DNA of 45,453 nucleotides from sequence record OR911938.1. One strand, 5' to 3'. The stretch's first letter is position 1; each line of letters begins with the position of its first letter. The notes under the pieces were generated by a model. The model saw nothing but the letters and a program-made list of their open reading frames with translations, had not been told where the DNA came from and did no database searches. The DNA is from Escherichia phage vB_EcoS_SD276. The translations under genes were made by a program, and so were the position numbers. Below are positions 2,025 through 26,742 of the stretch, piece after piece.

Positions 2025-3545
2025 ATGACCGTTAACGTTGACAACCAGCACCCGCTCTATGCGCGCATCGCGCCAGAGTGGAAAATGATCCGTGACTGCG
2101 TAGCAGGGGAGCGCGCCGTGAAGGCGTGCGGCCCATTATACCTGCCACACCCAGCAAGCGGCGACACCACCGACCCGAAATCACGGGCACGGTATAAGGC
2201 GTATAAGCAACGTGCTGTCTTCCTGAACGCCACCGCCCGCACACTGAATGCATTGTTAGGCGTTGCCTTCGCCAAGCCGGTGAGTATAGACCTTACTGGG
2301 GCAATGGCGGACCTGATTGATGACGTAGACGGCAGCGGTATGCCTCTGGCGCAACTCCTGCGCGGCGCTATGTCGGAAGTGCTGCAATCAGGCCGTGCCG
2401 GTTTTATGGTGGACTACGACCGCCAGGCTAACTTTGATGAACTTGGTAACGTAGTGCCGCAGACAGCCGCTGAGATGGCGGCACACCGCCCGCTTATCCG
2501 CCTGTATACGGCAGAGCAGATCATCAACTGGCGGCAGACCCACGGTGTCGACACGCTAATCGTGCTGAAGGAAACGGACGAAATCAGCACCGAAGACCCG
2601 GACGACTTCGCAAACCACGAGGTAACCATCTGGACCGAGCTTCGCATGATTGACGGCAAGGCACATGGTCGACGCTGGTTTTACAACGCGGACACGTCAG
2701 ACGTGCAGATGGACTTGCCGCGCGGCTTCACCCGCACCGACTTAGTGCCGCTGGTGGATGCCTCCGGTAATGCGCTTACTCAACTGCCATTTTGCTGGTG
2801 TGGTGCTGTGGACAACAACGCGACGCCGGACGCCGCACCGCTGGCGGATATTGCATCCATCAACATTAAGCACTACAACGCCGAAGCAGACGTCGCCGAG
2901 ATTGCGCACATTGTGGGCCAACCTACACTCATTGCGACCGGTCTGACCCAATCATGGGCCGATAAAAACCTGAAGGGCGGCATCGCACTAGGCGCGACTA
3001 AGGGCGTTATCCTGGGGCAGAACATGGACGCTAAACTTCTTCAGGCGGAGGAGCGCAACTTGTCTGTTGCCCTGTGTGAGCGTCGAGAATTGCAAATGGC
3101 TAAACTGGGCGCTGCCCTGGTTGAGAAAGGGACTGCACCTAAGACGGCAACCGAAGCGGCCTACGATGCGCAGACCGATAACAGTATCCTGTCGCTTATT
3201 GCCGGTAATGTTGAGAAGGCTTTCAACCGTGCGCTGCAAATCGTCCAGCTATTCACGGGAGACACCGCAACCCAGCAAGTCACGTTGAATAAGTTTTACA
3301 CCGAGATCACGGTAGACGCACAGCTTATGACCGCGATGATGGCAGGTGTGCAGACCGGTACTGTCCGACTGGCTGACTTTATCAAGTGGATGATGGCCCA
3401 GGGCGTCATTGATGACTCGCAAACCGTTGAGCAGGTGGAAGACGAATTGCGAAATCAGAATCCATTGCCTCAAATGTCCCCGGATGCGGTAGAATCTACC
3501 GAAGAAGACCCGGACAAGGTAGCGGACAATGGCGAAGACAATTAA
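2025..3545 (+). CDS. portal protein
   Basis: 506 aa ORF directly after terL, acidic C-terminal tail; size and synteny typical of portal. Confidence 0.75.
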   Translation: MTVNVDNQHPLYARIAPEWKMIRDCVAGERAVKACGPLYLPHPASGDTTDPKSRARYKAYKQRAVFLNATARTLNALLGVAFAKPVSIDLTGAMADLIDDVDGSGMPLAQLLRGAMSEVLQSGRAGFMVDYDRQANFDELGNVVPQTAAEMAAHRPLIRLYTAEQIINWRQTHGVDTLIVLKETDEISTEDPDDFANHEVTIWTELRMIDGKAHGRRWFYNADTSDVQMDLPRGFTRTDLVPLVDASGNALTQLPFCWCGAVDNNATPDAAPLADIASINIKHYNAEADVAEIAHIVGQPTLIATGLTQSWADKNLKGGIALGATKGVILGQNMDAKLLQAEERNLSVALCERRELQMAKLGAALVEKGTAPKTATEAAYDAQTDNSILSLIAGNVEKAFNRALQIVQLFTGDTATQQVTLNKFYTEITVDAQLMTAMMAGVQTGTVRLADFIKWMMAQGVIDDSQTVEQVEDELRNQNPLPQMSPDAVESTEEDPDKVADNGEDN

Positions 3546-4632
3546 TCAATATATGGCGGATCGAATGATCCGCCGGCACATCTTCACCCAGCGCCTGAGC
3601 AATGGCCAGGCGCGAAGGGTGCTGGCTATGTGGGAGAAATTCCGGCCTACATTACTGGGGAAGCTGACCGAGTTGCTTGATGGCAAAAAGTCCATGAATA
3701 ATAAGGCACTTTCCACGCTGTTAACGCAACTCGACAAGACCGTTAAAGCAGAATTGCGCACCGAGTTTAAGGTGTTGGCTGAAAGCCTTCAGGAGTTTGC
3801 CGACACGGAGGCTGATTATCTCGCCGACACATTAACGGCAGCGATCCAGCCGGTGGTCGCCGTACCTGCGGTCGAGGTGGTTGGCGTAGTGACCGGTGCG
3901 CAGATCGCAGCGACGGCTATGAAAAACCCGTTCCAGGGAAATACCATGATGCAATGGCCTGATTCATTGTCTGAGTGGGCCAGGACGCAGATCAGGAATC
4001 AGGTGCGCGCTGGATTCATCCAGGGCAAGCCAACTATGGAAATTATAGCGGACGTGAGGCGCGCGCTCGGCGGTCGTAGTGCGCAAGCCATCTCGAGCGT
4101 TGTTAAGTCCGCAGTCAACCACTATGCGGCGACAGCCCGCGAACTAATGGTAAAAGCAAATGACGATATTCTCGAAGGTCGCCAATGGTTATCTACATTG
4201 GACACGCATACTTCTCCCATGTGCCAGCTACGCGATCGCCTGTTTTATCCGGTTGATGTTACTCCCGACACCAAAGGAAAGCGCGGCGGGAAAGTGGTGG
4301 CTGGGTCACAATATGGCGCTGGTCCGGGCAAGTTGCATTACTGTTGCCGGTCGACGGAGACGTGGAAGGTTAAAGGCATGGAAGATTGGCCCAGTGGTAA
4401 GCGTCCGGCACTGAAGGCTGACGCGGGTCGATTGCTGAGTGAGCAGGTCGACGCGCAGACTGATTTCTTCTCATGGGTGCAGCGCCAGCCGCGCCATATC
4501 CTGGAAGAATTATACGGAGTGCAACGCGCCGACCAGATTATGCGCGGCGTGAAAGTGCCAAAGATGTTCACCGATTCCGGCGAACTGATGACTATTGCAC
4601 AGCTTAAAAACCGGGGGTTGTGGCGTGATTAA
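3529..4632 (+). CDS. minor head / head morphogenesis protein (Mu F / SPP1 gp7-like)
   Basis: 367 aa after portal; C-terminal motif LSTLDTHTSPMCQLRDRLFYPVD resembles the Mu F-family domain. Confidence 0.6.
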   Translation: MAKTINQYMADRMIRRHIFTQRLSNGQARRVLAMWEKFRPTLLGKLTELLDGKKSMNNKALSTLLTQLDKTVKAELRTEFKVLAESLQEFADTEADYLADTLTAAIQPVVAVPAVEVVGVVTGAQIAATAMKNPFQGNTMMQWPDSLSEWARTQIRNQVRAGFIQGKPTMEIIADVRRALGGRSAQAISSVVKSAVNHYAATARELMVKANDDILEGRQWLSTLDTHTSPMCQLRDRLFYPVDVTPDTKGKRGGKVVAGSQYGAGPGKLHYCCRSTETWKVKGMEDWPSGKRPALKADAGRLLSEQVDAQTDFFSWVQRQPRHILEELYGVQRADQIMRGVKVPKMFTDSGELMTIAQLKNRGLWRD

Positions 4633-4954
4633 ATATGCAGCGATTGGACTGGTTATCGGTCTGGCGGTAGGATTCTGGCTAGGCGACTCCTATCGCGCTG
4701 GCGTAGTGGCGGGGGCGGCGCAAGAAGCGCAAGCCCAAGCCCAACGGCAGCAAACTAAAGTTGTTGAGCGCTCCGTGCAGGCCGAACAAGCCCGCGACGT
4801 AGAATACCGGACTATCACGAAAGAGGTTGTTAAATATGTTACGCGCCCTAACCGCCCTGATTGTAGTTTTGATGCTGAGCGCGTGCGGATCAAGCAACGC
4901 GCCGTTGATGCCGCTAACGGAGTCGGCACTGCGACCGCCGTGCAAGTTCGATAG
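4595..4954 (+). CDS. i-spanin (Rz-like); start may be GTG at 4625
   Basis: N-terminal transmembrane helix IKYAAIGLVIGLAVGFWLG followed by Q/A-rich coiled-coil segment; contains an out-of-frame lipoprotein ORF. Confidence 0.5.
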   Translation: MHSLKTGGCGVIKYAAIGLVIGLAVGFWLGDSYRAGVVAGAAQEAQAQAQRQQTKVVERSVQAEQARDVEYRTITKEVVKYVTRPNRPDCSFDAERVRIKQRAVDAANGVGTATAVQVR

Positions 4955-7155: not shown

Positions 7156-8256
7156 ATGTCTTTAACAGTGTTCCAGCGTAAACTCGTCACCGCGGTTACG
7201 CAAATGATTCCCGATAACCTGAACGTGTTCAACGCTGCCGCTAACGGCGCTGTTGTTCTCGGCACGGGTGAAGTGCTGAAGGACGTTGTAGAAAAAATGT
7301 CCGTAGGCTTGATCGCCAACCTCGTTACCGACCGTAACGCCTACGCCCCTGTCGGTACTCCGGCGACCGCAAAAGTTCTGGCGCGTATGCTGACCAACTC
7401 GGTTAACCTTTCCGCGAAAGTGGGTCCGGTAGCAATCACTAAGGCCATGATGGCTAAGATTGAAACCAACGTTAACAGCGTTGCGGCTGAGATTGCGGCA
7501 CAGGCTACTCAAGCGATTATGCTGCATTACCTGAAGGCCGGTATTGGCGCGAGTAAAGCAGCGATCGAAAGCAACGAAGCGGCAAAATACACCCAACCGG
7601 CGCGCGTTGACGGCGTTGGTGGTCGTACCTTCCCGACCCTGGCAGACTTCCCGCTGGCGGCTTCCAAGTTCGGCGATCAGGCGTCTTTGATTAAATCCTG
7701 GTTTATGGACGGCGTTACCTGGGCAAACTTCATCGCTTACCAGGCGCTTCCATCTGCCGAGCAGGTATTCGCGATCGGCGATCTGCAGGTAATGGGCGAT
7801 GGCCTGGGCCGCCGTTTCATTATCTCCGATGCCGCTGCCGATGCAATGGGTGCGGGTAAAATGCTGGGTCTGGTCCCTGGCGCGGTTGCAGTTACCACCA
7901 ACGGCCTTGATATGCTGGCGCAGGAAAAAGGCGGTAACGAGAACATTGAGCGCTGGTGGCAGGGTGAGTTCGACTTCAACGTGGCTGTTAAAGGCTATCG
8001 TCTGAAGGCGTCCGCTCGCACTCCGATCGAAGGTGTGCGCTCGTTCAAACTGGGCGATATCACCACTTCCGCTAACTGGGAACTGGACCAGGGCCAGGTA
8101 GACAACGCACCGGCAACCGTTCAGGATGTTGGCGCTGTTGGTGACGGCGATACTAAAGGCCGTCGTAAGACCCAGGCTGCGCAGGAAGTGCCGACCCGTC
8201 ACATCAAGGAAACGGCGGGCGTACTGGTTACGCTGACCCCGACCAAAGCGTCCTGA
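7156..8256 (+). CDS. major capsid protein
   Basis: 366 aa ORF after scaffold with strong RBS AAAGGA and followed by a strong terminator; position and size. Confidence 0.7.
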   Translation: MSLTVFQRKLVTAVTQMIPDNLNVFNAAANGAVVLGTGEVLKDVVEKMSVGLIANLVTDRNAYAPVGTPATAKVLARMLTNSVNLSAKVGPVAITKAMMAKIETNVNSVAAEIAAQATQAIMLHYLKAGIGASKAAIESNEAAKYTQPARVDGVGGRTFPTLADFPLAASKFGDQASLIKSWFMDGVTWANFIAYQALPSAEQVFAIGDLQVMGDGLGRRFIISDAAADAMGAGKMLGLVPGAVAVTTNGLDMLAQEKGGNENIERWWQGEFDFNVAVKGYRLKASARTPIEGVRSFKLGDITTSANWELDQGQVDNAPATVQDVGAVGDGDTKGRRKTQAAQEVPTRHIKETAGVLVTLTPTKAS

Positions 8257-8274
8257 TCTACGCACATCCCAAAT

Positions 8275-8299
8275 GGGCGGGCTTATGCCCGCCTTTTTT
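8275..8299 (+). terminator. intrinsic terminator after major capsid gene
   Basis: GGGCGGGC-TTAT-GCCCGCC followed by TTTTTT. Confidence 0.7.
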
Positions 8300-8314
8300 A
8301 TAGGAGTGAATACA

Positions 8315-8815
8315 ATGTATGGCGACCCGCAAACCTTTGTTGATTATGCCGCAACGCGAGGCGTTGAAGTCACGCTGAGCGATGCAACGCGACACCTCAC
8401 CGTCGTTAATGACTTCCTTAACGGCATCAACTGGATCGGCGAACCCGCAGACCAGACCGGCATCGACGCATGGCCCCGCCTTAATTACCAGTCGGACGGT
8501 AAGCCGGTGCGCGACACGCTCACTGAAGTTTTGGCAGTAGTGCCTGCAGGGCAAATCGTAGACTTCGCATCAATCCCCGTTGCCGTTGAGCAAGCCGTTT
8601 ACAGGTTGGCGATGTTAGTGGCGGACGAGGTCGATATTTCTCCGGTTGGCAGTGGTAAGGAGACTATCCGCGAAACTGTTGGCCCGATCACGATGGAATA
8701 TGACCCTGCGACGATTGGTAGCGGTGTTTCGTTCCCGTGGTGGGATGGCTTGCTGGGGCACTGGATTGACGCAGACGGCAACGCAGCGGGTAATTTTGAC
8801 GTATTCCGGGGGTGA
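8315..8815 (+). CDS. head-tail connector / adaptor protein (putative)
   Basis: Position after capsid gene; RBS GGAG; track ORF start at 8273 lies inside the upstream terminator hairpin so start moved to ATG 8315. Confidence 0.4.
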   Translation: MYGDPQTFVDYAATRGVEVTLSDATRHLTVVNDFLNGINWIGEPADQTGIDAWPRLNYQSDGKPVRDTLTEVLAVVPAGQIVDFASIPVAVEQAVYRLAMLVADEVDISPVGSGKETIRETVGPITMEYDPATIGSGVSFPWWDGLLGHWIDADGNAAGNFDVFRG

Positions 8816-8816
8816 T

Positions 8817-8933
8817 ATGAATCCTGCATTACTGGCGGCTATTATCGCCGCAAATACTAAACGCCAACCAGAACCGGAACCAGCGCCAGAACCGGAACCA
8901 CCGGTACAGGAGGATGATAATGGCGGGCTTTAA
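8817..8933 (+). CDS. small hypothetical protein (38 aa, Pro/Glu-rich)
   Basis: Short ORF MNPALLAAIIAANTKRQPEPEPAPEPEPP between connector genes; no other support. Confidence 0.25.
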   Translation: MNPALLAAIIAANTKRQPEPEPAPEPEPPVQEDDNGGL

Positions 8934-9273
8934 TTACGCTGGCTTGAAGCGGAAAGTCAATCCGCTGATTAAAAAGTTCGGAATGACGGCTACGGTGACG
9001 CGTCCTGGTACAGTCGACCGCGTAGACGGCGACGAAGTTGTCATCCCTCCGACCTCGTTTGACGTCATCGGACTTCGCGAGGAGTACAAGCCAAGCGAGA
9101 TCGACGGGACGCGTATCGTTGCCGGGGATGTGAAGTTTTTGTGCCAGGCAGTAAAGCCGGTGCAGGTCGGGGATTTGGTTAGCCTGAACAATACAGACTA
9201 CAGGGTCATCAATCCAAACCCACTGCAACCGGCTGGAACAACCATGCTGTTTCAACTACAGCTAAGGGGTTAA
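8920..9273 (+). CDS. head-tail joining / head closure protein (putative)
   Basis: ATG 8920 is 6 nt after AGGAGG; small protein in neck-gene position. Confidence 0.45.
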   Translation: MAGFNYAGLKRKVNPLIKKFGMTATVTRPGTVDRVDGDEVVIPPTSFDVIGLREEYKPSEIDGTRIVAGDVKFLCQAVKPVQVGDLVSLNNTDYRVINPNPLQPAGTTMLFQLQLRG

Positions 9274-17013: not shown

Positions 17014-17621
17014 CAACGTTTAAATTGTACGGCGTTTTAGGGCGTCGATTCGGTAAAGTGCATAAGCTGGACTGCTTCACACCGGGCGAAGGAATCACCG
17101 GCTTGTGTGTGAAGTTGCCAGGGTTACAAGACTTTTTAATGTCGGCCCACCTGGACAACATGATGTTCAAGGTGCGCAAAGGCGACCACATAATGACCGG
17201 TTATGATGAGCTTGGCGAGTTCCACGGCAACCGCGTCGTCACCATCGCGCCGGTTATGACTGGCGCAAAAAGAGGATTGGGCCAATTGCTGGCGGGTGTC
17301 GCGATCGTAGTGGCGTCGTTCTATACGGGCGGACTTGCTACTGCCGCTTTCGGGGCTTCGGCGGCAACCGCTGCCGCTATCGGTACGGCTACGTTTTCGT
17401 TCGGCGTGTCGATGGCGCTGGGTGGCGTTATGCAATTGCTGTCGCCTCAACCGAAAGGATTGCAGACACGGCAGGACGTGGATAACAAGGCTTCGTATGC
17501 GTTCGGGGGGCCGGTAAACACGACCGCGCAAGGGACCGCACTTGGTGTATTATGGGGCGAGCGTGAGATCGGCGGCGCTATTATTTCAGCCGGAATCGTA
17601 ACCGAGGATTTGAACGAATGA
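17004..17621 (+). CDS. tail assembly protein I-like
   Basis: 205 aa, hydrophobic Gly/Ala-rich C-terminal half; between K-like and J-like genes. Confidence 0.6.
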   Translation: MAMTTFKLYGVLGRRFGKVHKLDCFTPGEGITGLCVKLPGLQDFLMSAHLDNMMFKVRKGDHIMTGYDELGEFHGNRVVTIAPVMTGAKRGLGQLLAGVAIVVASFYTGGLATAAFGASAATAAAIGTATFSFGVSMALGGVMQLLSPQPKGLQTRQDVDNKASYAFGGPVNTTAQGTALGVLWGEREIGGAIISAGIVTEDLNE

Positions 17622-20600
17622 CGATTATTTACGACGTCACGGGCCATAAAGGCGGCGGCGGCAAACAGCACACCCCACAGGAGACGCCAGATAGCCTGCA
17701 TTCGCTGGCTAAAATCCGCATCTTGCTTGCGCTGGGAGAAGGTGAGTTCGAAGGTATTCCAGACCCTAACGAATTACGGCGGCGCGTATATCTGGACGGA
17801 ACACCGATCCAGAACGCAGACCTGTCAGAAAACTTCCCCGGAGCGCGTGTGGAGTTCCGCCCAGGCACACAGCACCAGGATGTGATCCACGGATTTTCAG
17901 CGGTGGAAAGTGAGCAATCTGTCGGCGTAAAACTGGAAAACGGCACGCCGTGGGTGCGCCAGATTAACGATACCAGTCTGGACGCCGTTCGCATTCGCAT
18001 CGGCATTCCGGCCCTGTACACTAACGAAGATAATGGCGACCTGGTGGGCGGGCGCATCGACTATAAGATCGTTGTGTATACGGATAACGCCGACCCGCGT
18101 GAGTTCAGATTCGCCGCCGTTGGTAAAACAATGTCGCTATATGAGCGCGACCACCGCATCGAATTACCGCCGAACGTGAATACCGGCTGGCGAGTGGAGG
18201 TGCACCGCATAACGGCAGACTCCACATCTGCGAAAGTGGTTAATGATATCCGTGTGCAATCCATCACGGAGATTATCGACGCCCGCCTGCGTTACCCGCT
18301 AACCGCGCTGTTGTTTGTGGAGTTCGACGCTAAAGCGTTCCAGAACATCCCGCGCGTATCCATTAAGTGCAAAGGTCGCAAGGTGTTGATCCCGAACAAC
18401 TACGACCCGATTAATCATACCTATTCCGGTGACTGGGACGGCACGTTTAAACGCGCATGGACGGATAACCCTGCGTGGCACTGGTATGATATTTGTATTA
18501 CTGAGCGCTTCGGCCTCGGTCGGCGTATCAAACCGCAAATGCTAAACCGATACGCGCTCTACCAGATTGCGCAGCGCTGCGATCAGTTGGTCAGCGACGG
18601 CAACGGTGGTCGAGAAATCCGCTTTAAGAATGATATGTACATTCAGTCACAGACGGATGCCTGGACCGTGCTTAAGGATTTAGCCGCCATCTTCGCCGGA
18701 ATGACCTGGTGGGGCAACCAGATGTTGAATATCGTCAGTGACCAACCGGTCGCAGCAGTGTCGCACACTATCACCAACGCATCTGTTATTGATGGGCGAT
18801 TCGACTACGCATCTGGCAGCCAGAAAACTCGCTATTCCACATTCGCGGTAGCATACGGCAATCCGAAAAACCACTACGATGACGCCATCGCAACGGGCCA
18901 GCGCGTCGAACTGGTGCGCCGCCATAAGATTAACCGTCTTGATATTACGGCGATCGGCTGTACGCGCGAGTCAGAAGCGCAACGCCGGGGGCACTGGGCG
19001 CTAATCTCAAACCAGCTTGACCAGCAAGTTAGTTTTAAGGTTGGCATGGAGGGGTTATTCTTTATCCCAGGTAGCGTAGTCGCGATCGCAGATACAAACA
19101 TTTCTGGCGGATTCGAGACTCGCGGCGGTCGGCTGTTGTCGGACCCTGGAACGCGTACCGTGCTGAACACGGACAGCGAAATCACGTTCCGCCCTGGCGA
19201 TAAGTTCCTGGTGCGCACCGATAGCGGTAATGTGGAGACTCGCGAAATCGCCAGCGTCAACGGCAACAAGGTCACTCTAAAAACCGCACTGGATGCCGAC
19301 CCGATTCCAGACCAACCGTTTTGCGTTGATGGCGACGATATCCAGTTGCAGAAATTCCGCATCACCGATCTGGAGTATGACGACTCTACGAGCACTTTCT
19401 CGGTGCGCGGGATTGAGTACAACGATAGCAAGTATGATGCCGTTGATAATGGCGCGCGCCTTGACCCAGGCATCTTTACGCAAGTACCAGACGGGGTAAT
19501 GAAGGGGCCGGAATCCGTGACCATCACCCCGTCGCAGATTTCATCGCAAGGACAGCTAATCACCAACGTGGATATTGTTTTCCCGCCGGTGAAGGACGCC
19601 GTGGTGTATGAAATCCAGTGGAGGCGTACTAGCCTGCAGAATATGGAGATCCAGTGGGGTAACGACTGGGTGAATATCCCTCGCACGGCGTCGAATGGGG
19701 CGCACATCCCTAACGTGTTCTCCGGTAACTATCAGGCACGCGTCCGCGCAATTGGTATGGGCGAAATCTCGTCCCCGTGGGTGTCTTCCGAGATCACGCC
19801 GGTGGAAGGTCGCCTCGGTGGGCTTAACGCACCAATCATCACCAACGCGATTTCGGGTCTGCACCAAATTTTGTGGAAGTGGAACCACAACAACGCCGCG
19901 ACGGATATCTCTTACACCGAGCTTGAAGTGCGCAAGACGGGTGCGGAGGAATGGAAGTTCCTAACCAACGTCCCATACCCGGGGGCGGAGTATGCGCAAA
20001 CGTCACTGGAGTTCGGGATCTATCAGCAGTTGCGCGCCCGTGTAGCGGATAAAATTGGCAACCTGTCGGACTGGTCGGCCCCGTTTGAAGGGCAGGTGAG
20101 CGACAAAGTTGACGAGTACATGAAGGGGCTTGATAACGAGTTCTTGACTTCCGAGGATGGTAAACACTTCCAGGAAGCTATTAACACGATCCCGCAAGGT
20201 ATCTATGAGTCTATGCTTACGGACGCCCAGCAGCTATTCAATGCCCGCGCCGAGTATAAAGGGATTTACGCGGAAATCACGGTGGCGTATAACGTGGCGG
20301 CGGACGCGCATAAAGCAGTAGCGCAACTGGAAACGTTGATCGGCACGCGCCTGGATGACGCCGAAGCATCAATCCACACGTTGCAGACTGCGCAAAGCAC
20401 ACATGAACAAGCGTTCGCCCAGTACCAGCAAACTGTTGCCGCTAAGTTTTCGGAACAGGAAGCAGCCATCCAGCAGGTACAAACGGCAACGGCGGACGTG
20501 GCTGGCGCGCTGGCGGAGTATAAGACCCAGGTCGCGGCGCAGTTCGGTCAGCAGTCCGCCGCGATCGAGCAGAAGATGACGTCTTCGTTTAACCATGCGG

Positions 20601-21064
20601 GTGGCAGCGCCACGTACAGTCTTAAGGCTGGCGTGACGTATAACGGGACTTACTATGACGCCGGTATGCAGCTTTCAGTTGTGACGTCTGGCAACGCAGT
20701 TAAATCGCGTATTGCGTTCAAAGCAGACCAGTTCTATATCATGCACCCATCTAATGGGTCGCTTTCGTCCGCGTTTATCGTTGACGGCGGGCAGGTGTAC
20801 ATCGACACGGCACGCATCAAGGATGCGTCAATCAACTTTGCACAGATCACGGACACGCTTCAATCAAATAACTTCGCTTCCGGGTCACGCGGCTGGCGTA
20901 TCCAGAAAGGCGGCGCTGCGGAGTTTAACGAGGTAACGGTCCGCGGCAACCTGTACGCCACATCCGGTAACTTCGGATTCTCTGGTGGGACCGTGACGAT
21001 TGACAAGACAGGAGTAAACGTGCCGTTACCTGGCGGGGGAAGGGTGAAAGTCGGGACGTGGTAA
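17618..21064 (+). CDS. central tail fibre / host specificity protein J-like
   Basis: 1148 aa, largest tail tip ORF after I-like gene; followed by terminator hairpin. Confidence 0.8.
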   Translation: MTIIYDVTGHKGGGGKQHTPQETPDSLHSLAKIRILLALGEGEFEGIPDPNELRRRVYLDGTPIQNADLSENFPGARVEFRPGTQHQDVIHGFSAVESEQSVGVKLENGTPWVRQINDTSLDAVRIRIGIPALYTNEDNGDLVGGRIDYKIVVYTDNADPREFRFAAVGKTMSLYERDHRIELPPNVNTGWRVEVHRITADSTSAKVVNDIRVQSITEIIDARLRYPLTALLFVEFDAKAFQNIPRVSIKCKGRKVLIPNNYDPINHTYSGDWDGTFKRAWTDNPAWHWYDICITERFGLGRRIKPQMLNRYALYQIAQRCDQLVSDGNGGREIRFKNDMYIQSQTDAWTVLKDLAAIFAGMTWWGNQMLNIVSDQPVAAVSHTITNASVIDGRFDYASGSQKTRYSTFAVAYGNPKNHYDDAIATGQRVELVRRHKINRLDITAIGCTRESEAQRRGHWALISNQLDQQVSFKVGMEGLFFIPGSVVAIADTNISGGFETRGGRLLSDPGTRTVLNTDSEITFRPGDKFLVRTDSGNVETREIASVNGNKVTLKTALDADPIPDQPFCVDGDDIQLQKFRITDLEYDDSTSTFSVRGIEYNDSKYDAVDNGARLDPGIFTQVPDGVMKGPESVTITPSQISSQGQLITNVDIVFPPVKDAVVYEIQWRRTSLQNMEIQWGNDWVNIPRTASNGAHIPNVFSGNYQARVRAIGMGEISSPWVSSEITPVEGRLGGLNAPIITNAISGLHQILWKWNHNNAATDISYTELEVRKTGAEEWKFLTNVPYPGAEYAQTSLEFGIYQQLRARVADKIGNLSDWSAPFEGQVSDKVDEYMKGLDNEFLTSEDGKHFQEAINTIPQGIYESMLTDAQQLFNARAEYKGIYAEITVAYNVAADAHKAVAQLETLIGTRLDDAEASIHTLQTAQSTHEQAFAQYQQTVAAKFSEQEAAIQQVQTATADVAGALAEYKTQVAAQFGQQSAAIEQKMTSSFNHAGGSATYSLKAGVTYNGTYYDAGMQLSVVTSGNAVKSRIAFKADQFYIMHPSNGSLSSAFIVDGGQVYIDTARIKDASINFAQITDTLQSNNFASGSRGWRIQKGGAAEFNEVTVRGNLYATSGNFGFSGGTVTIDKTGVNVPLPGGGRVKVGTW

Positions 21065-21069
21065 ATGCG

Positions 21070-21093
21070 ATGGGGCCATCTGGCCCCATTTTC
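21070..21093. terminator. terminator hairpin between convergent J-like and antisense genes
   Basis: ATGGGGCC-ATCT-GGCCCCAT followed by TTTTC. Confidence 0.55.
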
Positions 21094-22057
21094 AATACAT
21101 ATTCGGGATGACGAGTAGCGGTGTTGGTACTGCAATATTTTTACCTGGCATCTGGAATTGCTGCCGCGAGTAGTTGCCGATGACGCGGTTTTTAGCGACG
21201 CGCACATTATTACCCGCCATGCGTATGCCGTTCATGCGGACGTGGTTATAGCCACCGTTGTTCTGAATCAGTGCTCCGGTGTATGAAAGCTGGATCAGGC
21301 GGTTTCCAATATTCTGGTCGCCCGTTCCGATGTTAATAGTGCGGTCATATACGAACGGCTTGTTCACCGTCGAGAACGTGACCTGATTCTGGTTATTCGT
21401 CATGGTGATCCCTGCCCCTGGCGTGGGTGGTGTGTTGTTGAATATCACCAAATCCATGTCCACCGAAGCCGCCACATCGTCGATGCCACCGTAGGACGCG
21501 TTGCGGACGATAATACTGCCGCCATCGAAGCCTACTGATACGTTGCCATCATCCCATCGGGCGAACGGAACACCGCCAACCGGCAAGGCCATACTACCGT
21601 TGACGCGCACGCGCTGTGCGTATCGGCAGGTCATTAGCTTAGACACGTTGGATATGGCGGTGAAGTCCGTCGAGTTGGCCACCAGTAAACCTGCGTTGCG
21701 CGACCCAACCGGCAGCACTTCCATTATGACGCCAGCCCATTGTGGTAAACCGGAGTACGCGCCATACGCATCCTCCCCGCGCAGGGTGATACCACTATTA
21801 CCGTTGCGAGTAACCGACGTAACGTAAAACGGGTCGGGAATTACCAGGGTCTGGTCAAACACCTCAATCACCTCTACCGGGCGAGTTAGCGCTACGATTA
21901 CCCGCGACCCATCCGTAAGCGGGGTGTTAATGGTTAGCGTCTTGTTGGACTGTGCCCGCTGGTTAAAGCTGGTGCAGAATGACGGCGCGCGGAGTCCAGC
22001 GGTTATCTCCATTACCGGCCTGCCATCGTTATAGTCGATAAGTATTCCAGCGCCCAT
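21092..22057 (-). CDS. hypothetical beta-rich protein, candidate receptor-binding protein (start could be GTG 22066)
   Basis: Antisense ORF downstream of J-like gene, translationally coupled to an upstream lipoprotein gene (TAATAATG overlap); Asn/Gly/Thr/Val-rich. Confidence 0.45.
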   Translation of the reverse strand: MGAGILIDYNDGRPVMEITAGLRAPSFCTSFNQRAQSNKTLTINTPLTDGSRVIVALTRPVEVIEVFDQTLVIPDPFYVTSVTRNGNSGITLRGEDAYGAYSGLPQWAGVIMEVLPVGSRNAGLLVANSTDFTAISNVSKLMTCRYAQRVRVNGSMALPVGGVPFARWDDGNVSVGFDGGSIIVRNASYGGIDDVAASVDMDLVIFNNTPPTPGAGITMTNNQNQVTFSTVNKPFVYDRTINIGTGDQNIGNRLIQLSYTGALIQNNGGYNHVRMNGIRMAGNNVRVAKNRVIGNYSRQQFQMPGKNIAVPTPLLVIPNMY

Positions 22058-22059
22058 TA

Positions 22060-22281
22060 TTACCACTCCCGTGATTTAACTGATACTGTGCCTGAGAAGT
22101 TGCCGTCGCTATCGGAGGACAGCCCAGTGAATCGCATGTCTACATCTCCTGCCGGTACTTTTTGCCCGTCAACGTAGCGCAACATGCAGCTACCGTAAGC
22201 AACCGTAACGCAATCTCCGTTGTTGCGTTCTACGGCGCAACCGGACAAAAGGACCGCACAAATCATAATTAAAGTTTTCAT
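22060..22281 (-). CDS. small lipoprotein, candidate superinfection-exclusion (Cor/Llp-like) protein
   Basis: 73 aa; signal peptide MKTLIMICAVLLSGC with lipobox; own promoter-like element upstream; located next to tail fibre genes. Confidence 0.55.
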   Translation of the reverse strand: MKTLIMICAVLLSGCAVERNNGDCVTVAYGSCMLRYVDGQKVPAGDVDMRFTGLSSDSDGNFSGTVSVKSREW

Positions 22282-22312
22282 GGTATCATCTCCTATATTT
22301 GGTTGAGTTTTA

Positions 22313-22340
22313 GTATTACACCGCTCAACCAGGATTGCAA
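22313..22340 (-). promoter_or_regulatory. promoter-like element upstream of lipoprotein gene (TTGCAA-N16-TAATAC)
   Basis: Hexamers on minus strand with TTGGTTGCAA motif. Confidence 0.35.
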
Positions 22341-22360
22341 CCAATTAAGAGGATTTAGCT

Positions 22361-24787
22361 ATGGCAGCGGGTACGCTATCCGTAACGAACAACAGCAAGG
22401 CGGTAGTAGGGGTTGGCACAACGTTTACCGCGTTTAAAGCAGGCGACTTTTTAACGCTGGTGGTAGGACAAGTCCCCTACACCGTAGCGATCGCGTCCAT
22501 TGAAAGCGCAACCGCGCTCACGCTGGTGTTACCGTTCGACGGCCCAACGGCAACCGGCCTTGCGTGGGACGGCGTTAAACGCGATACCATGTCACTGGCA
22601 ACGATGGGCGTTACCGTACAGGCACAGAAAGCGTTGCGATTGATGATCGCAGATGAAAACAACTGGCGCGCTATCTTCGGCGAAGAAGAAGAAATCTCGG
22701 TCACGCTACCGAACGGTCAAGTGGTGCAGGGTATGTCGTGGGGCTACCTGTCAAAACTGCTTAAAGACGTAGATCCTGTTGAATTGCAGGCTATCGCGGA
22801 CCGGACCATCACGGCTAAAAACCAGGCGCAAGGATTCCGTAACGAGGCGGAAGGCTTCAAGAACACCGCGAATACCGCGAAAGATGCCGCAGTAGCTGCG
22901 AAGACCGCGGCTGAAACGGCGCAGGGTAAAGCCGAGACAGCTAAAACGGCAGCAGAGTCCGCGAAGACTGCCGCCGAAACAGCTAAATCGCAGGCCGTAA
23001 CCGCTAAAGACCAGGCCAAAGGATTTCGCGACGAGGCTGAAGGCTTCGCAAACAGCGCGGACGCGTCAAAGAAAGTGCCGTATGCTGGCGTGGATATTGG
23101 AACGCCTGCTGGCATTAGGGATATGCTCAAGACGCTACGTGATACGGTCAAAGGTGGCTTTTGGCGGGTAACGAACTCGACGCAGTTCCCGGCTGGCGAA
23201 CTGACCCCCGGTAGCTATGGGCCTGGTGTGTGTGGTGGGGCGGGCGATACTTTCTTTGCAATCAACGTTGACTATCAAACCTCTCGCGTCAAAGTTTACG
23301 CTGGAAACAATGCCGCGATTAACGGCTCTTCGGGGAATGTGAGCGCCGTCGAACTAGCAAGGCTGGGTGCTAACGGGGACGTGGCGTTAGCGGACGGCGG
23401 GACCGGTGCATCGAACGACCAGGACGCGAGAAAAAACCTTCAGGCAATGCACGAGCGACAGGCATCGTTGGGTACTGAAGATCTTAACGAATTGAAAGGG
23501 GATAAGGCTGGATTTTACTTTCAGTCCATGTCGGCGAACGCCACCCCTGAGCGTAACTATCCAGTCGCCACGGCTGGTTGCTTGCTGGTGCAGCGTACTG
23601 GTGCTAACGTCGCGACAAGCTGCGTGCAGACTTTCACATCATACTTAGACGGGCGTCGGTGGATGCGCTGGATTAGCAACGGGGCAACTGGCACCTGGTC
23701 GCAGTGGTACGAACTGTATAACGCGGGGTCGTCGCCGACTTTTTCTGGGGTGGTCGCTGGCTCTTCGGTGGAGGCTAGAGGGAACGAAAAGCGCGCAGTT
23801 CTTCGCACCTGGCCTAATGATGTATCTGTTTCCAACTCGGCATCTAATAAATTCTTGCAATTAAGGGACAATGGTGAGCTTGCATATGACAACAAGCTGA
23901 TCGCGTATAATGGCCTTGTAGCAAGCGGCTCATTTTATATGCAAGTTCCGAGCATTAAGGTTAATACCGCTAATGGTGGCTTCCGTATCGACGGAACAAC
24001 GGCAACAAACGACCAACCACTGCACGTAACAGGCTACAACTCCGCAGGTACGCGTCTTTGGTTTTTAGGGAAGGACACTGGGGCGAACGCGCTATTCCTG
24101 AACGATGTTACATCGTCTAAGGTTGATCTGATCACAGACGGCGTTGTGCTTGGTACAAAGAATTTTGCGGGCAAGGCATACGTCCAGGCCGCAAGTTTGG
24201 AGATCGACCGTCCGAGCGGAAAGTATTTCAAAATGATGAACAACGGCGACTCGTCGCACCCCGCAACCTTCAAATTGTGGGGTAACGGGTCAGATCGCCC
24301 GGCGGTTATTGAGTTTGGGTTTGACGATGGTCCGGGGTGGCTTTTTTACGCCCAGTATAATAGCAACGGCACGCGTCAGATGAACGTTAACGGAACGGTA
24401 AACTGTACGACGGTAAACCAGTCTTCTGACCGCGAGTTGAAGGATAACATCAAGCCGATCGAGAACGCCCGCGCGGGCCTTGCTAAGATGGGTGGTTATA
24501 CCTACACCCTGAAAAAAGACGGTATGCCGTACGCCGGGGTGATTGCACAGGAAGTAATGGACGTTGTGCCGGAAGCCGTGAGCACGTTTGAGGACTACGA
24601 ATACCTTGCGGGGCCAACGCAAGACGGCGAGGAACTGGTAGGGCGTCAGCGCTTCTTCCAGGTGGATTATGGTGCTATTGCTGCATACGCGGTGCAAGTG
24701 TGTAAAGAGCAGGAAGAGGAACTGGTGTCTTTGCGTAGCGAACTGGAGGAATTGAAAGCTGCCGTAGCGGCACTGACTAAAGCATAA
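22361..24787 (+). CDS. lateral (L-shaped-type) tail fibre with C-terminal intramolecular chaperone (peptidase S74-like) domain
   Basis: 808 aa; internal Ala/Lys/Thr repeats (AKTAAETAK...); C-terminal region with conserved S...K motif and terminal coiled coil EEELVSLRSELEELKAAVAAL typical of autoproteolytic chaperone domains. Confidence 0.7.
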   Translation: MAAGTLSVTNNSKAVVGVGTTFTAFKAGDFLTLVVGQVPYTVAIASIESATALTLVLPFDGPTATGLAWDGVKRDTMSLATMGVTVQAQKALRLMIADENNWRAIFGEEEEISVTLPNGQVVQGMSWGYLSKLLKDVDPVELQAIADRTITAKNQAQGFRNEAEGFKNTANTAKDAAVAAKTAAETAQGKAETAKTAAESAKTAAETAKSQAVTAKDQAKGFRDEAEGFANSADASKKVPYAGVDIGTPAGIRDMLKTLRDTVKGGFWRVTNSTQFPAGELTPGSYGPGVCGGAGDTFFAINVDYQTSRVKVYAGNNAAINGSSGNVSAVELARLGANGDVALADGGTGASNDQDARKNLQAMHERQASLGTEDLNELKGDKAGFYFQSMSANATPERNYPVATAGCLLVQRTGANVATSCVQTFTSYLDGRRWMRWISNGATGTWSQWYELYNAGSSPTFSGVVAGSSVEARGNEKRAVLRTWPNDVSVSNSASNKFLQLRDNGELAYDNKLIAYNGLVASGSFYMQVPSIKVNTANGGFRIDGTTATNDQPLHVTGYNSAGTRLWFLGKDTGANALFLNDVTSSKVDLITDGVVLGTKNFAGKAYVQAASLEIDRPSGKYFKMMNNGDSSHPATFKLWGNGSDRPAVIEFGFDDGPGWLFYAQYNSNGTRQMNVNGTVNCTTVNQSSDRELKDNIKPIENARAGLAKMGGYTYTLKKDGMPYAGVIAQEVMDVVPEAVSTFEDYEYLAGPTQDGEELVGRQRFFQVDYGAIAAYAVQVCKEQEEELVSLRSELEELKAAVAALTKA

Positions 24788-26063: not shown

Positions 26064-26521
26064 GTGAATTTTGCAACGTTTATTGCGTAAATTTTCGGGA
26101 CCAAATCACCACACGCCCGACGAATCGCCGCGATGTTCTTCTCGCAATCTTCAATGATGACCAGTTCCGATACGTCCGCGTAACAGACCATTTTGAACAC
26201 GGCGCACGCCTTAAACTCAGGCGGCGGGGTGTCGTCCAGCATGTGGCGCATAAACAACCGGCCTACTGGGAAGACCTCCAATTGCTCCGCGGTGGTGTCC
26301 CAACATTCTCGCTGCCGGTTGGTCAGATACGCGATCTCGAAGCCTTGCTCTTTATACATGCGCAACAACGGCAGCATATCCATGTTCAGGTCTTCGCGGA
26401 CGTGTGCTTTGTGCCACTTCGCCCAAAAGGTGGATTTAGTTTTTATGCCCGGCACCAGATCGGCACGCGCATCGCTTGAACCGTTAATAACGCCATCCAA
26501 ATCGCAAATCAATAATTTCAT
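26051..26521 (-). CDS. HAD-superfamily hydrolase (phosphatase-like)
   Basis: N-terminal HAD motif I LICDLDGVI and downstream acidic motif IIEDC. Confidence 0.55.
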   Translation of the reverse strand: MKLLICDLDGVINGSSDARADLVPGIKTKSTFWAKWHKAHVREDLNMDMLPLLRMYKEQGFEIAYLTNRQRECWDTTAEQLEVFPVGRLFMRHMLDDTPPPEFKACAVFKMVCYADVSELVIIEDCEKNIAAIRRACGDLVPKIYAINVAKFTCNQ

Positions 26522-26742
26522 TTTAAACTCTCAATAAGGGTGTAACGGGCGCTTCGCGCAGTAAAGGAGTTGCACACGAAATGGCAACGCTGAGTCATGA
26601 CAAGCCAACCGGTGAGGTCAAGGCCCATGATGTATTCGTGGCGAGACGCGCGCACCACACGATTGCGTCGCGGGTCAATACCGTAGTCTTTTTGCATTTG
26701 GTCTACTACCGCGGGGTCGCGGTCAACGATTAAGATATTCAA
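26518..26742 (-). CDS. hypothetical protein (74 aa)
   Basis: Overlapping start/stop with flanking genes in operon. Confidence 0.35.
   Translation of the reverse strand: MNILIVDRDPAVVDQMQKDYGIDPRRNRVVRASRHEYIMGLDLTGWLVMTQRCHFVCNSFTARSARYTLIESLK

Follow-up and report, generated by a model that had tools for sequence, protein, structure and literature searches.

A predicted LptD-type receptor-recognition cassette between the tail-tip and lateral fibre genes of the Dhillonvirus phage vB_EcoS_SD276

Between its genes for the J-like tail-tip protein and the lateral fibre, Escherichia phage vB_EcoS_SD276 carries two leftward genes: which receptor do they serve, and what is the role of each of them? 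The window analysed here (OR911938.1) is the complete Dhillonvirus genome of 45,453 bp. A first-pass annotation made from the sequence alone had placed an antisense pair of a lipoprotein gene and a gene for a 321-aa protein at this site, and both open reading frames are indeed present on the minus strand. The features of the locus are as follows.

17618-21064, plus strand: J-like tail-tip gene, 1148 aa
20874-21064, plus strand: allele-specific 3' end of the J-like gene, proposed docking site of the receptor-binding protein (alignments of J)
21069-21090, no strand assigned: GC-rich hairpin, likely a bidirectional terminator (folding; position kept in relatives)
21092-22057, minus strand: predicted LptD(E)-binding receptor-binding protein (RBP) gene, 321 aa, DUF6453, all-beta, ATG at 22057 and TGA at 21092 (PF20051, 9RPT_C)
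22060-22281, minus strand: predicted superinfection-exclusion lipoprotein gene, 73 aa, ATG at 22281 and TAA at 22060 (PF24052, phrog_4281, Rtp45 match)
22312-22340, minus strand: promoter-like element with a presumed function for the leftward two-gene unit (sequence reading and alignment)
22361-24787, plus strand: lateral fibre gene, 808 aa

The J-like and RBP genes are convergent, with stop codons at 21064 and 21092, and the lipoprotein gene lies directly upstream of the RBP gene. The junction between the two leftward genes reads TAA-TA-ATG, leaving a 2-nt gap and no overlap, whereas the corresponding genes of Bas14 share one base. The layout of a rightward J followed by a leftward RBP gene and a leftward lipoprotein gene is common to Bas18, Bas14 and the Drexlerviridae phage Bas02. 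Over the region 20900-22500, nucleotide identity is 97% to Escherichia phage Gluttony_ev152 and 93% to Oekolampad (Bas18). Synteny of the pair extends to 63 phage records, counted as those covering at least 80% of this query region. At least one flank of the locus aligned in all 157 matching phage records, the middle section in only 63 of them. Because both ORFs score far above the Pfam gathering cut-offs and are syntenic in those 63 phage records, they are not chance reading frames. Ksap1, the Dhillonvirus trigger of Avs2 (PMC11564622), was considered as a possible member of the pair and rejected, being encoded by a separate 74-aa gene between the methyltransferase and phosphatase genes.

The 321-aa protein matches PF20051 (DUF6453) with 401.8 bits against a gathering cut-off of 25, over residues 4-297 of 321, and is assigned to phrog_1265 among the PHROGs. 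Its earlier description as Asn/Gly/Thr-rich is roughly right (G 10.6%, N 9.7%, T 7.5%), though valine reaches 10.3%. It had also been called beta-rich, in agreement with an AlphaFold2 model that is all-beta, with 24 strands and no helix of four residues or more (mean pLDDT 82, pTM 0.82). The protein is identical to Oekolampad bas18_0025 (RBPOeko) at 309 of 321 positions (96%). A sequence search of the PDB returned as its sole match chain C of 9RPT, 9RPW and 9RQI ('Tail fiber protein'), with E = 1.7e-205 over the full length for 9RPT_C. Structure prediction, as had been suggested, led to the same LptDE-bound RBP. The model superposes on 9rpt_C with a target-normalised TM of 0.98 and an rmsd of 1.1 A, and the structure search against the PDB gave no other match at E <= 0.001. 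The reading as a receptor-binding tail protein is thereby upheld, its 96%-identical Oekolampad counterpart having been solved on LptDE.

According to Dunbar et al. (PNAS 2025; PMC12685063), whose cryo-EM structures 9RPT, 9RPW and 9RQI show the Oekolampad (Bas18) RBP on LptDE, the lipopolysaccharide translocon, in its open state, the protein inserts deeply into the extracellular side of open LptDE, with an interface of ~1,700 A^2 and 20 hydrogen bonds to LptD. In the same study, spontaneous LptD point mutants resistant to Oekolampad lost RBP binding in vitro, and the in vitro RBP-LptDE complex formed very slowly and needed a degraded jellyroll domain (PMC12685063). In the BASEL study of 2021, lptD mutants fully resisted seven small siphoviruses sharing the RBP module, including Bas18, and the locus type downstream of gpJ was tied to LptD via resistant mutants (PMC8594841). 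Resistance-conferring LptD changes in the literature include Y671N, D352Y and a deletion of Y658-Y678. Oekolampad belongs to the same genus and carries bas18_0025/bas18_0026 at the same locus, with the same gene order, orientation, promoter-like element and hairpin position. Compared with it, the RBP of the window carries 12 substitutions, conservative to moderate in kind, and the lipoprotein a single one, and the lateral fibre differs in its distal part (808 aa in the window, 606 aa in Oekolampad). Judged by sequence and model, the pair is very likely the LptD-type receptor-recognition cassette of Dhillonvirus, in the same allele as in Oekolampad (Bas18). We confidently predict from these matches that the window phage uses LptD/LptDE as its terminal receptor and carries the cognate exclusion lipoprotein. 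The receptor specificity had been expected to be new information; it was already known, from genetics in 2021 (PMC8594841) and from structure in 2025 (PMC12685063). More broadly, earlier publications on what are essentially the same genes cover the locus, its receptor and the structure of the RBP, together with the way in which the related Rtp45 excludes phage.

Could the 12 substitutions have shifted the specificity of the RBP, either towards another receptor or towards the LptD variant of a different host? Written from Oekolampad to the window, they are R15V, Y27F, A49D, Q52R, V54I, D95E, A139S, K148Q, S161G, T215A, S246G and S253R. With 12 of 321 positions differing, charge changes are included (R15V, A49D, Q52R, K148Q and S253R), and phages with Sodalis, Shigella or Acinetobacter as the recorded host carry nearly the same cassette. 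We consider retuning very unlikely, however, as the identity is still 96% and the C-terminal 68 residues (254-321) are identical to those of Oekolampad, with none of the 12 substitutions and with a conserved Gln299, the sole contact residue given in the main text of PMC12685063. Furthermore, the RBP-locus alleles of the BASEL phages track receptor specificity without exception (PMC8594841), and the JeanPiccard/Bas02 RBP, at 32.5% identity (tblastn), is linked to LptD too. The latter belongs to the type of Rtp44/Rtp45 of phage Rtp, an allele also present in Bas01, Bas02 and Bas14, which has the same PF20051 and PF24052 families, the same convergent arrangement with J, the same receptor LptD and the same Cys pair in the lipoprotein, with ~32-33% identity between its RBP and that of the window.

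The databases suggest another role, in which the pair would be a host-conversion 'moron' of membrane proteins unrelated to adsorption. The name of phrog_1265 is 'membrane protein', within the moron category, the RefSeq product names point the same way, and the two genes are oriented opposite to the structural genes. Yet the 321-aa sequence has neither a signal peptide nor a hydrophobic segment, and its counterpart from Oekolampad, which binds LptDE, is soluble and was purified with a yield of 10-15 mg/L (PMC12685063). Moreover, in Citrobacter prophages a DUF6453 homologue is located directly after J, on the same strand and among tail genes. The probability of a moron unrelated to adsorption is therefore close to negligible. 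No PF24052 lipoprotein was found beside the Citrobacter prophage DUF6453 genes; the small neighbouring ORFs have no Pfam match, and translation of two of them revealed neither a signal peptide nor a lipobox.

Both the RBP and J carry candidate contact regions for docking. The N-terminal ~27 residues of the RBP (M..G I.ID.NDG.P.M.ITAGLRAPS) are invariant or nearly so among 31 homologues, down to 32% identity, and Citrobacter phage HCF1 matches residues 1-34 only, at 79% identity. On the side of J, nucleotide homology to the FhuA-type phage SECphi18 ends at 20873, inside the 3' end of the gene, and the last ~49 aa of the window J cannot be aligned with the SECphi18 J. The last 60 aa are 68% identical to the J of Bas14 and 53% identical to that of Bas02, both LptD-type. 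The C-terminal ~50 aa of J thus vary together with the allele of the RBP, the same pattern as that of the receptor-specific GpJ C-termini in Fig. S12 of bioRxiv 10.64898/2026.04.02.716166. These alignments suggest that the allele-specific final ~50 residues of J are probably where the RBP is attached, without a covalent bond, and that on the RBP the contact is probably made by the conserved N-terminal ~27 residues.

An allele-specific J tip might also mean that the C-terminus of J itself binds the receptor, as in lambda, with the DUF6453 protein reduced to an accessory or a factor of assembly. Direct use of distal GpJ domains is indeed known from some small siphoviruses, for LamB, TolC or NupG (PMC8594841; bioRxiv 10.64898/2026.04.02.716166). 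However, co-variation of the J tip is equally expected of a docking surface. The 96%-identical Oekolampad protein alone binds LptDE over ~1,700 A^2, and resistance mutations in LptD abolish this binding, so that receptor binding by J is highly improbable here.

The second gene of the cassette encodes a protein whose N-terminus reads MKTLIMICAVLLSG followed by CAVERN. The lipobox noted earlier is correct, MKTLIMICAVLLSG and the next Cys carrying the canonical L-S-G-C, with Ala at +2. The signal peptide comprises 14 residues and ends in LSG just before this Cys, and the mature part contains Cys24 and Cys32. The lipoprotein matches PF24052 (Phage_lipoprotein) over residues 3-73 with 76.6 bits (gathering cut-off 27) and phrog_4281 with E = 1.6e-33, and it is identical to Oekolampad bas18_0026 (SEOeko) at 72 of 73 positions (99%). 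In a PDB sequence search it matches the solved Rtp45 chain 9RPS_D ('Phage lipoprotein') with E = 1.5e-8, and the disulfide pair Cys30/Cys38 of Rtp45 aligns with Cys24/Cys32. It thus combines the signal peptide with lipobox and the conserved Cys pair that mark Rtp45-type exclusion lipoproteins. The partner lipoproteins of Bas14 and Bas02 match PF24052 too.

As reported in PMC12685063, bas18_0026 was named SEOeko and shares 35% identity with Rtp45; expression of the Oekolampad lipoprotein failed, and a structure on LptDE exists for Rtp45 only. Rtp45 binds periplasmic LptD between LptE and LptM, with a hairpin reaching up the lumen, and displaces the extracellular loop EL4 of LptD by up to 20 A, making RBP binding impossible (PMC12685063). 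Blocking is hence a steric displacement of EL4 and not an allostery of the Llp type (PMC12685063). By extrapolation from the 35%-identical Rtp45, the window lipoprotein probably blocks LptD against further phage. Cloned rtp45 reportedly confers resistance to Rtp.

The lipoprotein had been proposed to be a receptor blocker of the Cor/Llp type. The blocking role is supported by homology to Rtp45; the sequence kinship to Cor or Llp does not, as the signal peptide alone matches Cor. A Cor-family protein that blocks FhuA and not LptD would be in line with the match to phrog_1119 (Cor; E = 5.4e-4) and with the first 16 residues, which are identical to those of the SECphi18 Cor. This weak match is confined to residues 1-30 because those first 16 residues are shared with Cor, and homology of the mature protein to the Cor family was not found. 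The mature part is unrelated to that of the SECphi18 Cor and instead resembles PF24052 and Rtp45, down to the conserved pair of Cys residues, which makes a FhuA blocker extremely unlikely. As for Llp, no Llp family is present among the Pfam and PHROG matches of the lipoprotein, and no Llp chain of the PDB was retrieved even at E <= 10. The four alternatives (retuning, moron, J as receptor binder and Cor-type blocker) are quite unlikely even when taken together, each being contradicted by structural and genetic data on near-identical proteins.

The LptD-type cassette follows the same logic as pb5/Llp of T5, which acts on FhuA: an RBP caps the central fibre and a small periplasmic lipoprotein disables the receptor. 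In the structures of both T5 pb5 and the Oekolampad RBP, the tail-proximal part of the protein is disordered. In contrast, the receptor of T5 is a TonB-dependent transporter, and the effect of Llp is allosteric over a long range, where Rtp45 physically displaces EL4. No sequence or fold relation to pb5 or Llp was found in Pfam, PHROG and PDB sequence and structure searches.

An own promoter-like element had also been ascribed to the lipoprotein gene. Such an element can be read by eye as TTGCAA (22340-22335), a 17-nt spacer and TG-T-AATACT (22317-22312), with 8 of 12 consensus matches plus an extended -10 TG, which is under the scan threshold. It is nearly unchanged in the window, Oekolampad, TheodorHerzl and SECphi18, the last being FhuA-type with a different cassette. 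A consensus promoter scan made no call in the 79-bp intergenic region upstream of the lipoprotein gene; the sole nearby minus-strand match (22289-22262) overlaps the lipoprotein start codon. The label 'promoter-like' is thus retained for this by-eye reading conserved in four phages, with a putative function. Each gene is preceded at 8 nt from its ATG by a Shine-Dalgarno sequence: AGGAG (22294-22290) for the lipoprotein, and GGGAG (22070-22066), within the end of the lipoprotein gene, for the RBP. At the other end, the hairpin at 21069-21090 has a 9-bp GC-rich stem and a 4-nt loop and takes up the 27 nt that separate the convergent stop codons of J and the RBP gene. Folding gives -18.5 kcal/mol for the plus strand (z = -2.9) and -16.5 kcal/mol for the minus strand (z = -2.6). 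TheodorHerzl and JeanPiccard have a hairpin of other sequence at the same position. It was not called by a terminator scan; we consider it a likely bidirectional terminator.

Combining these elements, the two genes would form one leftward unit, co-transcribed from a conserved sigma-70-like promoter located in the divergent intergenic stretch of 79 bp, and leftward transcription would end at the hairpin shared with the J gene. The 321-aa DUF6453 protein would act as the RBP capping the central tail fibre, as shown for the 96%-identical Oekolampad protein, and would probably dock via its N-terminus on the tip of J. From its sequence and the Lol rules, the lipoprotein is predicted to receive its lipid at Cys15 after export and to reach the outer membrane, in the inner leaflet; standard Lol sorting places a lipoprotein with Ala at +2 in the outer membrane. 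By homology to Rtp45, it may bind periplasmic LptD between LptE and LptM, with its hairpin pushed up the LptD lumen to displace EL4. Incoming or released virions would then be unable to bind infected cells or cell debris.

The significance of these results is mainly one of annotation, with little beyond. The public labels ('hypothetical protein', 'membrane protein', DUF6453 and the PHROG moron category) are uninformative or misleading and could be replaced by 'LptD-binding receptor-binding protein' and 'LptD-directed superinfection exclusion lipoprotein'. The additions over published work are minor, namely the co-variation of the J tip, the hairpin, and the finding that the Cor gene of FhuA-type Dhillonviruses has the same 16-aa signal peptide, ribosome-binding site and promoter-like element. 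Since LptD is an essential protein and a target for drugs, natural variants of the RBP, like this one with its 12 substitutions, are of modest use in finding out which positions tolerate change.

The same slot between J and the lateral fibre is filled by different cassettes. In TheodorHerzl, also a Dhillonvirus, and in JeanPiccard of the Drexlerviridae it is occupied by a second, divergent LptD allele, the Rtp type. In the FhuA-type Dhillonvirus SECphi18 (gp44, gp45, Cor), it holds two small plus-strand genes and a minus-strand cor gene, whereas the window has one DUF6453 gene on the minus strand beside its lipoprotein gene. The SECphi18 Cor gene has the promoter-like element, the ribosome-binding site and the first 16 residues (signal peptide) of the window lipoprotein, joined to an unrelated mature part. 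Against SECphi18, the alignment gives sharp recombination joints, one at ~20873 in the 3' end of J and one at ~22234 at the lipobox, and it is because the second joint falls at the lipobox that signal peptide, ribosome-binding site and promoter-like element are shared with Cor while the mature parts are unrelated. Two further ideas are tentative, and we hold them to be rather unlikely: the Oeko-type lipoprotein might block LptD differently from Rtp45 or guard against another set of LptD phages and, separately, the 'socket' of promoter, ribosome-binding site and signal peptide shared with Cor genes might, with the allele-specific J tip, provide fixed joints for the exchange of whole cassettes between phages.

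The 5′ part of the exclusion lipoprotein gene is shared with a gene of different content. Window positions 22234-22340 (minus strand), which hold the promoter-like element, the Shine-Dalgarno sequence and the signal peptide, match positions 1941-2041 of L002, at the Cor gene of the FhuA-type Dhillonvirus SECphi18. The 16-aa signal peptides of the lipoprotein and SECphi18 Cor are identical, and the DNA upstream, including the promoter-like element and the Shine-Dalgarno sequence, is nearly so. Since the homology ends at the lipobox, the J tip, the receptor-binding protein (RBP) and the mature lipoprotein appear to form the exchangeable unit.

The convergent J and RBP genes are separated by a hairpin:

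Window 21069-21090: hairpin, with a counterpart in the loci of TheodorHerzl and JeanPiccard (L003, L004)

In these two loci, which carry the Rtp-type allele, its position is kept although the stem has none of the window's sequence (AAAGCCCCG...GGGGCTTT), which points to selection acting on structure rather than on sequence.

Homologues of the DUF6453 RBP were also found in Citrobacter lambdoid prophages and in podoviruses:

L005-L007 (Citrobacter prophage contigs), 8001-8945, same strand as the J gene: DUF6453 homologue
L008 (Escherichia phage vB_EcoP_SU7, NC_070980.1), 2689-4690: J-type tip protein and DUF6453 protein

The prophage homologue shares 56% identity with the window's RBP and follows the J gene on one strand after 3 nt, and the next gene, at the edge of the prophage, codes for a 414-aa fibre. 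In L005-L007, no lipoprotein of family PF24052 was called adjoining the DUF6453 homologue. In Gordonclarkvirinae podoviruses, a protein of 322 aa has the J-type Phage_Tail_Tip domain (PF09327), and its gene is directly followed by that of a 343-aa DUF6453 protein (PF20051, E = 4.5e-25; 98.8% hhalign probability to the RBP family). The pairing of J tip and DUF6453 protein is common to the window phage and these podoviruses despite their different virion type, and hints that the Gordonclarkvirinae receptor might be an outer-membrane protein, possibly LptD.

Near-identical Dhillonvirus cassettes occur in phage records OQ221563.1, MG065671.1 and GQ502199.1, deposited with Acinetobacter baumannii, Campylobacter jejuni and Sodalis glossinidius as hosts. 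These labels look doubtful, because the phages carry an enterobacterial LptD-type RBP (62-96% identity).

Two further window genes were compared with those of Oekolampad (Bas18):

Window 22361-24787, plus strand: lateral tail fibre gene, product of 808 aa
Window 26518-26742, minus strand: ORF of 74 aa, with the gene for the Dam-like methyltransferase on one side and that for the phosphatase on the other

The Oekolampad lateral fibre measures 606 aa and is near-identical to that of the window across the first ~150 aa, whereas the distal parts are unrelated apart from a shared Peptidase_S74 intramolecular chaperone domain at the C-terminus. The window phage therefore probably differs from Oekolampad in surface-glycan specificity. 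The 74-aa ORF is, judged from its size and position, the homologue of Ksap1, the small protein by which Dhillonviruses set off the KpAvs2 defence (PMC11564622). The ORF product is 92% identical to bas18_0031, differing at residues 28, 34-37 and 67.
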